Positions 16,320 through 16,673 of a stretch of 64,000 nt of DNA are shown here, one piece after another. How positions within the stretch are numbered: the stretch's first letter is position 1; every line of letters begins with the position of its first letter. The DNA comes from a virus. The notes under the pieces were generated by a model. It searched no databases and had not been told where the DNA came from. It worked only from the letters and a program-made list of their open reading frames with translations. The stretch spans positions 5,091 to 69,090 of the IMG/VR virus record IMGVR_UViG_3300037493_005727. One strand, given 5' to 3'. Position numbers and translations under genes: made by a program.

Positions 16320-16673
16320 GTGAAGACCGTGCTGGTCGTCGACGACGACAAACTCATTCGCAGGCTGGTGCACGACGCCCTGGTCAAGCGCGGAGACTTC
16401 ACCGTCCTGGAGGCGGAAGACGGCCTAGACGGGGTTGCGCGATTCATGTTGCACGCGCCCGACGTCCTCATCACAGACGTCTCTATGCCCAATAGCGACG
16501 GGCTCGAGATGCTGGACGTTCTCCAAAAAGGAGGCCTCCTCAAAGGCGTCCGCGTCGTCATCATGTCCGGCGTGCTCAACGTGTCAGAGATCAAAGAGAA
16601 GCACGCCGGTAAGGCAGCGTTACTGAGTAAACCGTTCAGCTTGCATGAACTGTACGCTGCGGTGGAAGGGTGA
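16320..16673 (+). CDS. stand-alone response-regulator receiver (CheY-like REC) domain protein
   Basis: GTG start giving MKTVLVVDDDKLIRRLVHDALVKRGDFTVLEAEDGLDGVARFMLHAPDVLITDVSMPNSDGLEMLDVLQ...VVIMSGVLNVSEIKEKHAGKAALLSKPFSLHELYAAVEG. DD pair, phospho-acceptor D (ITDVSMP), T/S and K (SKPF) all present. Upstream in-frame part of the 263-aa ORF looks non-coding. Confidence 0.7.
   Translation: MKTVLVVDDDKLIRRLVHDALVKRGDFTVLEAEDGLDGVARFMLHAPDVLITDVSMPNSDGLEMLDVLQKGGLLKGVRVVIMSGVLNVSEIKEKHAGKAALLSKPFSLHELYAAVEG

Follow-up and report, generated by a model that had tools for sequence, protein, structure and literature searches.

The stretch of viral DNA analyzed here, 64,000 nucleotides (nt) from IMG/VR record IMGVR_UViG_3300037493_005727 (positions 5,091 to 69,090 of that record; hereafter the window), contains a short gene for a stand-alone receiver protein, named REC, at the head of a block of plus-strand genes (Table 1). 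The 117-residue product matches the Pfam profile Response_reg (PF00072) from its first to its last position (1–111 of 111), with a score of 71 bits against a cut-off of 30.2 and an E-value of 1.1e-19, and Response_reg is its sole Pfam match at E ≤ 0.01. This full-length match answers the HMMER check suggested in an initial annotation of the locus, which had read a complete receiver signature from the sequence. Every motif quoted there is found at its canonical place: VVDDD supplies Asp8 and Asp9 (followed by Asp10) after β1, ITDVSMP the phospho-acceptor Asp53 after β3, VVIMSGV Ser83 after β4, and SKPF the pair Lys104-Pro105 after β5. An AlphaFold2 model built from an alignment of 36 relatives has a predicted local distance difference test score (pLDDT) of 88.6 and a predicted template-modeling score of 0.85, with strands and helices alternating five times as in a (βα)5 fold. 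When searched with Foldseek, the model was matched with probability 1.00 to solved receivers, among them Spo0F, the receiver domains of KdpE and NtrX, RR468, and CheY4, with template-modeling (TM) scores of 0.82–0.87 and 28–33% identity; a profile search of PDB sequences returned 3lte, RR468, CheY, and Spo0F at E-values from 1e-19 to 1e-15. REC thus belongs with the receivers by a profile score above the cut-off over the whole domain, by fold, and by its catalytic quintet. As judged from sequence and model, the product is confirmed as a true, phage-encoded single-domain receiver with all of its catalytic residues, and we are confident in describing it as a phosphorylatable single-domain response regulator, phosphorylation itself being predicted.

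The phage origin of the window, assumed initially, is backed by genes for rIIA, rIIB, an ATP-dependent DNA ligase, two helicases, a baseplate-J protein, a VanY peptidase, and a sigma-factor fragment; the window also carries seven tRNAs and a tmRNA and has a GC content of 60%. Among the 5.8 billion proteins searched, about 50 are related to REC at 51–99% identity, and below this group identity falls abruptly to 41% or less, where ordinary cellular regulators begin. All of these relatives are receiver-only proteins on phage contigs of up to 190 kb and, barring one fragment truncated at its N-terminus and some gene models over-called at that end, they are 113–124 residues long; with a reading frame that closes at the stop codon given in Table 1, REC has no output domain, as had been stated. 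Among 1.84 billion cluster representatives, in which the clade amounts to about three clusters at 50% identity, 183,310 receivers were found at E ≤ 0.001, only three of them within the REC clade (59–68% identity), and IMG/VR holds three clade members on viral contigs of 168–189 kb. When 185,579 genomes representative of bacteria and archaea were scanned with a pattern limit, none of the best 80 among the 445 confirmed matches exceeded 41% identity, and the closest of these 80 came from metagenome-assembled genomes (MAGs) of Bdellovibrionota. In the isolated-phage collection, all tblastn matches of REC lay below 38% identity and came for the most part from host DNA listed under a phage name, a megablast of window positions 14000–20000 gave no match, and the closest helicase and rIIA proteins were only 25–39% identical to those of the window. 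When metagenome contigs were scanned with the REC family alignment, generic response regulators flooded the output, and no member of the clade was among the matches. No close isolate points to the host through the helicase or rIIA, and leaderless-type promoters and a one-piece tmRNA are insufficient to name it. By these relationships, REC is an accessory gene of one clade of large (~170–190 kb) uncultivated phages.

Within this clade, the residues of the phosphorylation site are retained. Asp53, Lys104, and Pro105 are invariant in the 36 family members compared, so that the conserved aspartate holds in related phages, while 90% or more of them retain Asp8, Asp9, and a Ser or Thr at position 83. 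Pairwise ratios of nonsynonymous to synonymous substitution (dN/dS) among nine loci range from 0.09 to 0.35, with synonymous sites near or at saturation, and the GC content of the gene (59%) is that of the phage (60%). The conserved phospho-residues, the low dN/dS, and the phage-like composition together identify REC as a functional gene selected for its phospho-chemistry. It is therefore hardly credible that REC is a passenger, that is, a recently captured host gene without a role in infection. Its restriction to one clade, and its dispensability for the wider group of phages that share the SNF2 gene described below, would suit such an origin, but the gene has kept the same position in nine diverged lineages, and the purifying selection, the matching composition, and the lack of any cellular relative above 41% identity among the 80 best matches of the genome scan all speak against it.

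No partner kinase was seen in the phage. Pfam scans of essentially all window open reading frames (ORFs) of about 100 codons or longer detected no HisKA, HATPase_c, Hpt, CheA/W, or second receiver domain, and precomputed Pfam annotation of about 10 kb beyond each end of the window includes no histidine kinase, Hpt, che, or further receiver domain, the negatives together covering ~84 kb of the ~190-kb genome. Within this span the initial remark that no histidine kinase lies nearby holds; neither a cognate kinase or Hpt gene that would make up a paired two-component system nor an association of REC with cheZ, cheA, or cheW was found. The rIIA orthologue of one related locus (L002) gives a GHKL-type ATPase match, and nothing marks that protein as a histidine kinase. 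As no phage kinase or Hpt protein was seen, the phosphoryl donor, if REC is phosphorylated, would be a host histidine kinase or acetyl phosphate; as there is no output domain, REC must act by protein-protein contacts.

REC falls below every curated NCBIfam equivalog cut-off, with 50.8 bits against 189 for CheY (NF007901), 47.9 against 200 for the archaeal CheY model (NF041367), 55.3 against 180 for CpdR, and 49.7 against 700 and 47.5 against 329 for RssB. Per-column entropy across the clade shows a nearly invariant active-site rim and nearly invariant strands, an unusually conserved helix α2 (Asp37, Gly38, Arg41, and His45), and a hypervariable helix α4, which at a mean of 2.44 bits, against 0.1–0.9 elsewhere, is the most variable element of the protein. 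In helix α1, invariant core positions alternate with variable exposed ones, and positions 11, 12, 16, 18, 19, and 22, which vary between lineages, match the kinase-specificity residues of RR468 as placed by a receiver alignment and by the mutant names in the structure matches. CheY proteins are marked by an aromatic switch residue, Tyr106, and by a conserved α4-β5-α5 surface for FliM and CheZ. In REC the Tyr106 position, three residues before the conserved Lys, is occupied by Leu101, which together with the hypervariable α4 argues against a CheY-type contact through α4-β5-α5. The initial annotation had mentioned chemotaxis as one pathway that such a protein might serve, and relatives of REC are labeled "CheY-like" by the Joint Genome Institute pipeline, with Escherichia coli CheY and Vibrio cholerae CheY4 among the structural and sequence matches. 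Spo0F, KdpE, and RR468, however, match REC equally well or better. Given also the failed CheY and archaeal CheY cut-offs, the leucine at the switch, the variability of α4 in the FliM/CheZ face, and the lack of che genes in the ~84 kb covered, we rejected REC as a CheY orthologue and see no support for a specific chemotaxis link; that the phage protein mimics CheY by binding the flagellar switch or by draining CheA, and so alters host motility, is very improbable.

The same comparison bears on a second use of the fold. Single-domain receivers are established as protease adaptors in bacteria, and REC could serve as a binding module independently of phosphorylation, in the manner of CpdR or RssB with host ClpXP or of atypical receivers. 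CpdR and RssB are among its best NCBIfam matches, and the residue equivalent to Tyr106 is aliphatic; yet these scores remain far under their cut-offs and are no better than those for NtrC or CheY, CpdR is itself regulated by phosphorylation, and purifying selection on all the phospho-chemistry residues would be unexpected if phosphorylation were irrelevant, which makes an adaptor of this kind improbable. The conservation pattern appears compatible with a role in which phosphotransfer itself is selected, over a classical output role. Phosphate sinks, such as Sinorhizobium CheY1, are a class defined by kinetics, namely rapid transfer from a shared kinase, no output, and fast dephosphorylation, and a receiver with neither an output domain nor a conserved α4 effector face is compatible with that class.

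Table 1. Features of the window discussed in the text (coordinates are window positions).
Feature	Position	Strand	Description
REC gene	16320–16673	+	GTG start, TGA stop at 16671–16673; 117 residues; stand-alone receiver; Asp53 codon at 16476–16478
Divergent spacer	16245–16319		75 nt between REC and the leftward gene
-10-like hexamer TACACT	16308–16313	+	exactly 6 nt before the REC GTG; candidate promoter
CTAnnCT before ATG or GTG	12315–12330, 13860–13876, 16307–16322, 20215–20231	+	without Shine-Dalgarno sequence
CTAnnCT before ATG or GTG	~35485–35499	-	without Shine-Dalgarno sequence
Conserved CTTATACC	16269–16276	-	reverse complement holds TATAAG, -10-like, facing the leftward operon
Conserved CTTTTACG	16289–16296		in the spacer; overlaps the hairpin loop
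Inverted repeat CCCCC-TTTTAC-GGGGG	16285–16300		arms 16285–16289 and 16296–16300
orf91	16677–16952	+	91 residues; begins 3 nt past the REC stop; shares 23 nt with the beginning of SNF2
SNF2-family ATPase	16930–18372	+	minimal, 480 residues; SNF2-rel_dom 3e-12, Helicase_C 1e-16; phrog_62 (DNA helicase) 7.5e-42
HAD-superfamily phosphatase	19068–19559	+	PNKP-phosphatase-like; Pfam HAD_PNKP 2e-08; same plus-strand block
Divergent leftward neighbor	15984–16244	-	86 residues; TTG start at 16244 behind AAGGAGG; marks the strand switch
DUF1281_C protein	15344–15991	-	Api92-like ferredoxin-like domain; just upstream of the divergent promoter region
tRNA cluster	9087–9314	-	
VWA-domain protein	9700–10833	-	
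C39 peptidase-domain protein	27324–27857	-	
Vault-like protein	30513–33272	-	919 residues; MVP_shoulder 5e-23, Vault_3 5e-9, Vault repeat 2e-7
tRNA cluster	33319–34516	-	adjoins the tmRNA
tmRNA	34620–34964	-	one-piece; Rfam RF00023, 150 bits over the full model
Sigma-factor-like protein	52286–52987	+	Sigma70_r3 3.6e-9; directly upstream of the VanY and baseplate-J genes

The genomic context was compared at 12 loci representing nine lineages (the window, L001–L003, L006–L008, and L095–L099). At all 12, REC is the first gene after the strand switch and is followed in order by an optional 91-codon frame (orf91), the SNF2 ATPase, and the HAD/PNKP-like phosphatase, with several unknown proteins also lying further downstream of SNF2. 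The initial description of REC as heading a plus-strand block, with its leftward neighbor diverging across the spacer, is therefore accurate. That it stands next to the SNF2 gene is true in part: the two are direct neighbors in L002/L003 and in L008, where the stop of REC overlaps the start of SNF2 by 8 nt (L002) or 4 nt (L008), whereas in the window orf91 intervenes. Counting the window, orf91 is present at nine loci, which belong to seven lineages; where present, it lies only a few nt from REC and overlaps SNF2 by 23 nt. These small gaps and start-stop overlaps make REC, orf91 where present, and SNF2 one tightly coupled operon. The leftward 86-residue gene has orthologues in L001, L006, L007, and L096 and no Pfam or NCBIfam match.

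The orf91 product has 35 relatives, all inside the REC phage clade, with column identities of 73–82% and an invariant C-terminus, CxxCGG..DQHAHA. Its AlphaFold2 model is an all-β domain with a pLDDT of 70, and searches of Pfam, NCBIfam, and PADLOC and a fold comparison (best E-value 0.27) gave no match. As the frame is also absent from the L002/L003 and L008 lineages, the idea that it is an output domain of REC that had been missed has no support. Its last eight codons in the window (16930–16952; invariant ..DDQHAHA) are also read, in another frame, as the SNF2 start MTSTPML, and the invariance of this end may reflect such dual coding.

The SNF2 family is far broader than that of REC: over 1,200 proteins are related to the window SNF2 at E ≤ 1e-10, and many of these are 52–56% identical to it and located on contigs of 100–210 kb. 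Among isolated phages, the only matches are from Salmonella phage Arash (41%) and Pseudanabaena phage PA-SR01 (37%). No receiver lies upstream of SNF2 in the distant members inspected, namely Arash gp217 and two contigs, L100 and L101. Since SNF2 is widespread without it, REC is a clade-specific gene added to the front of an SNF2 operon older than itself. In Arash (gp216-gp217; L004, 3169–6407) the orthologue lies directly behind a gene annotated as RNA polymerase beta subunit and ahead of annotated structural proteins, and its neighbors have no homologue in the window. On the REC-less 194-kb contig L100, a 1,269-residue LigD/ligase fusion is encoded directly upstream of it. The orthologues of L006 (6611–8758) and L095 (6594–8783) carry an insertion of ~240 residues right after residue 10 that holds a HEMGHN (HExxH, metallopeptidase-like) motif, which the window protein does not have. 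A defense function for the operon was also considered and rejected, the SNF2 core showing only sub-threshold likeness to DrmD, ZorD, DpdE, and BrxH.

The constancy of this operon raises the alternative that REC is a switch internal to the phage, a subunit that regulates the SNF2 ATPase of its operon in a phosphorylation-dependent way, perhaps with the 91-residue protein, and that would couple DNA remodeling, replication, or recombination by SNF2 to the phosphoryl or energy state of the host. REC precedes the SNF2 module in every locus and lineage sampled, with spacings and overlaps typical of coupled, interacting partners, and its conserved α2 surface has no assigned partner. A weak lead in the same direction comes from the two closest cellular homologues of REC found, single-domain receivers of 41% identity in Bdellovibrionota, which lie ~1 kb from an SNF2 helicase. 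These two loci, L102 (1161–6098) and L103 (1307–6039) from Bdellovibrio and Oligoflexales MAGs, are the only ones with an SNF2 neighbor among 166 generic response-regulator loci. Their receivers are flanked by two paralogous unknown proteins of ~210–228 residues, and the helicase is a divergent SWIM-plus-SNF2 protein of ~950 residues. However, that helicase is only 22% identical to the phage SNF2, and the two genomes amount to one lineage. The SNF2 relatives without a REC neighbor also count against a dedicated partnership, as do the faster divergence of REC (58–84% identity across loci, against 74–85% for SNF2) and the hypervariability of α4 in the classical effector face; a REC-SNF2 fusion, sought as a sign of a functional link, was found in none of the best 120 SNF2 homologues. 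On balance we regard a switch of this kind as rather unlikely, though as the main rival to the reading favored below. A related and slightly less likely proposal is that REC is a checkpoint owned by the phage, which would sense the phosphorylation state of the host, through either the acetyl-phosphate pool or a specific kinase of the stress or envelope responses, and in its phosphorylated form turn SNF2 on or off, with or without the 91-residue protein.

The spacer upstream of REC contains elements that bear on its expression. The motif cTA(C/T/A)(A/G)CT-N6-(G/A)TG precedes REC in all nine lineages, the hexamer varying as TACACT, TATGCT, or TAAACT, and the 6-nt gap between hexamer and start codon holds no Shine-Dalgarno sequence. 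The pattern CTAnnCT-N6-7-RTG is also found ahead of four other credible genes of the window, and its spacing is specific: six matches (one of them, at 3545, probably spurious) occur at 6–7 nt, against zero or one at each of five control spacings. Two more copies of CTAnnCT (1057 and 29511) stand ahead of genes with a Shine-Dalgarno leader. This arrangement suggests a sigma70-type promoter that consists of the -10 element only and gives a leaderless REC mRNA, and it likewise suggests that several transcripts of the window are leaderless. On the other side of the spacer, CTTATACC is present in all nine lineages and unique in the window; from its position ~12 nt upstream of the AAGGAGG sequence, we infer that it contains the -10-like element of the leftward operon.

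The perfect CCCCC/GGGGG hairpin pointed out in the initial annotation does exist in the window, but its arms are unconserved in L001, L002, L007, and L095, RNAalifold found no consensus pairs in an alignment of the nine spacers, and folding z-scores of -0.74 and -1.43 are no better than those of shuffled sequence. A terminator scan flags it on the minus strand only, where no gene would need a terminator, and, as it sits between the two -10-like elements, it is probably transcribed from neither. We therefore judged it incidental and discarded it as a regulatory element.

The reading that we favor, tentatively and with the sequence as its basis, is that REC competes with the host response regulators as a phosphoryl acceptor, acting as a sink or decoy or tying up a kinase. 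According to the literature, a response regulator can sequester a kinase that is not its cognate partner (PMC10368727). REC would be the first, probably leaderless, cistron transcribed from a host-type, -10-only promoter, in an operon that would continue by translational coupling into the small unknown protein and the SNF2 ATPase. Its place directly behind a sigma70-like -10 element, in a phage that has a sigma factor of its own, suggests early expression by the host RNA polymerase. The protein would be phosphorylated by host histidine kinases or acetyl phosphate and would compete for, drain, or sequester a host kinase early in infection, by which the host two-component response would be blunted or rewired. 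The variable kinase-specificity positions of helix α1 are expected if REC tracks different host kinases in different lineages.

Several points weigh against this proposal. The REC-SNF2 synteny and the start-stop overlaps, constant over the 12 loci, would equally suit a phage-internal partner; the conserved residues of α2 form no known kinase-docking face and hint at a specific partner; and the variability of α1 may just mean weak constraint. About two thirds of the ~190-kb genome lies outside the inspected part, and a phage kinase encoded there is possible. Both the phosphorylation of REC and its host target are predictions. The initial annotation had proposed that the phage may hijack or dampen a host two-component pathway. 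Signaling fed by the host remains plausible, and so, on the sequence data, does such hijacking or dampening; what had been overlooked is the invariant, coupled REC-(orf91)-SNF2 operon, which raises SNF2 as the rival target.

Among known proteins, bacterial single-domain regulators such as RR468 of Thermotoga maritima, Spo0F of Bacillus subtilis, CheY of E. coli, and DivK and CpdR of Caulobacter have the same fold, a similar length (~117–125 residues), and the same complete pocket (Asp-Asp, Asp, Ser/Thr, and Lys-Pro), with TM scores of 0.82–0.87 and 28–33% identity to REC. Unlike them, REC comes from a phage in which no cognate kinase gene was seen, falls outside all curated equivalog families, carries Leu at the aromatic switch and a hypervariable α4, and is at most 41% identical to the cellular proteins found. 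Among phages, CheY-like genes have been described in the tail-fiber/host-recognition modules of Alteromonas phages V22 (gp30) and A5 (gp11), where they were called class II auxiliary metabolic genes (PMC7289586, PMC10579305). These are likewise phage-encoded, roughly single-domain receivers, and are read as host-manipulating accessory genes. They have, however, no detectable sequence relationship to REC (no Alteromonas phage is among the REC tblastn matches at E ≤ 1e-3), and the operon that REC heads, with SNF2 and the HAD phosphatase, lies in the vicinity of ligase, helicase, and rII genes. The cREC domain (PF20274) of jumbo phages is a divergent receiver-like domain tied to NAD+/ADP-ribose systems and reported never to take part in two-component signaling (Iyer et al. 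2021, PMC7824862). It shares with REC a receiver-derived fold in large phages, whereas REC is a canonical Response_reg protein with the conserved Lys, without a cREC match at E ≤ 0.01 and without NAD/ADP-ribose genes among its neighbors. A cREC_REC (PF20274) gene was observed on contig L100 (7963–8301, minus strand), ~600 nt downstream of the SNF2 orthologue. The PHROG profiles matched by REC (phrog_731, phrog_5982, and phrog_20458; E-values of 3e-17 to 6e-9) are all labeled "unknown function"; at 227–1030 positions in length they represent multi-domain regulators or hybrid kinases, of which REC covers the receiver part only.

Other features of the window lie apart from the REC operon. The tmRNA encodes, according to ARAGORN, the tag peptide ANDNVDFPQYALRAA, and one of the two tRNA clusters adjoins it. 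A homologue of Major Vault Protein is unusual in a phage genome. The sigma-factor-like protein may serve late transcription, and the genes for the VWA, DUF1281_C, and C39 peptidase proteins look accessory.

Two-component signaling is the main way in which bacteria sense their surroundings. Phage response regulators have so far been annotated and loosely called auxiliary genes, and full-text literature searches found no functional study of a phage-encoded one. As an annotation, REC is well supported, with an open mechanism, and will not surprise a specialist; proteins of this type are known, and the novelty lies in the clade and in the constant position of the gene as the first of an SNF2 operon. 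The clade offers a clean case, with an intact and strongly conserved receiver, no kinase in sight, and an unvarying first position in the operon. Should REC drain or tie up a host kinase, it would represent a new kind of factor for host takeover or anti-defense. If it controls SNF2, the virus would wire a host signaling input directly into its own DNA machinery. Were it a checkpoint, the phage would gate DNA replication, recombination, or remodeling on host physiology, and a two-component pathway would be split between the two partners, the kinase belonging to the host and the regulator and effector to the virus.

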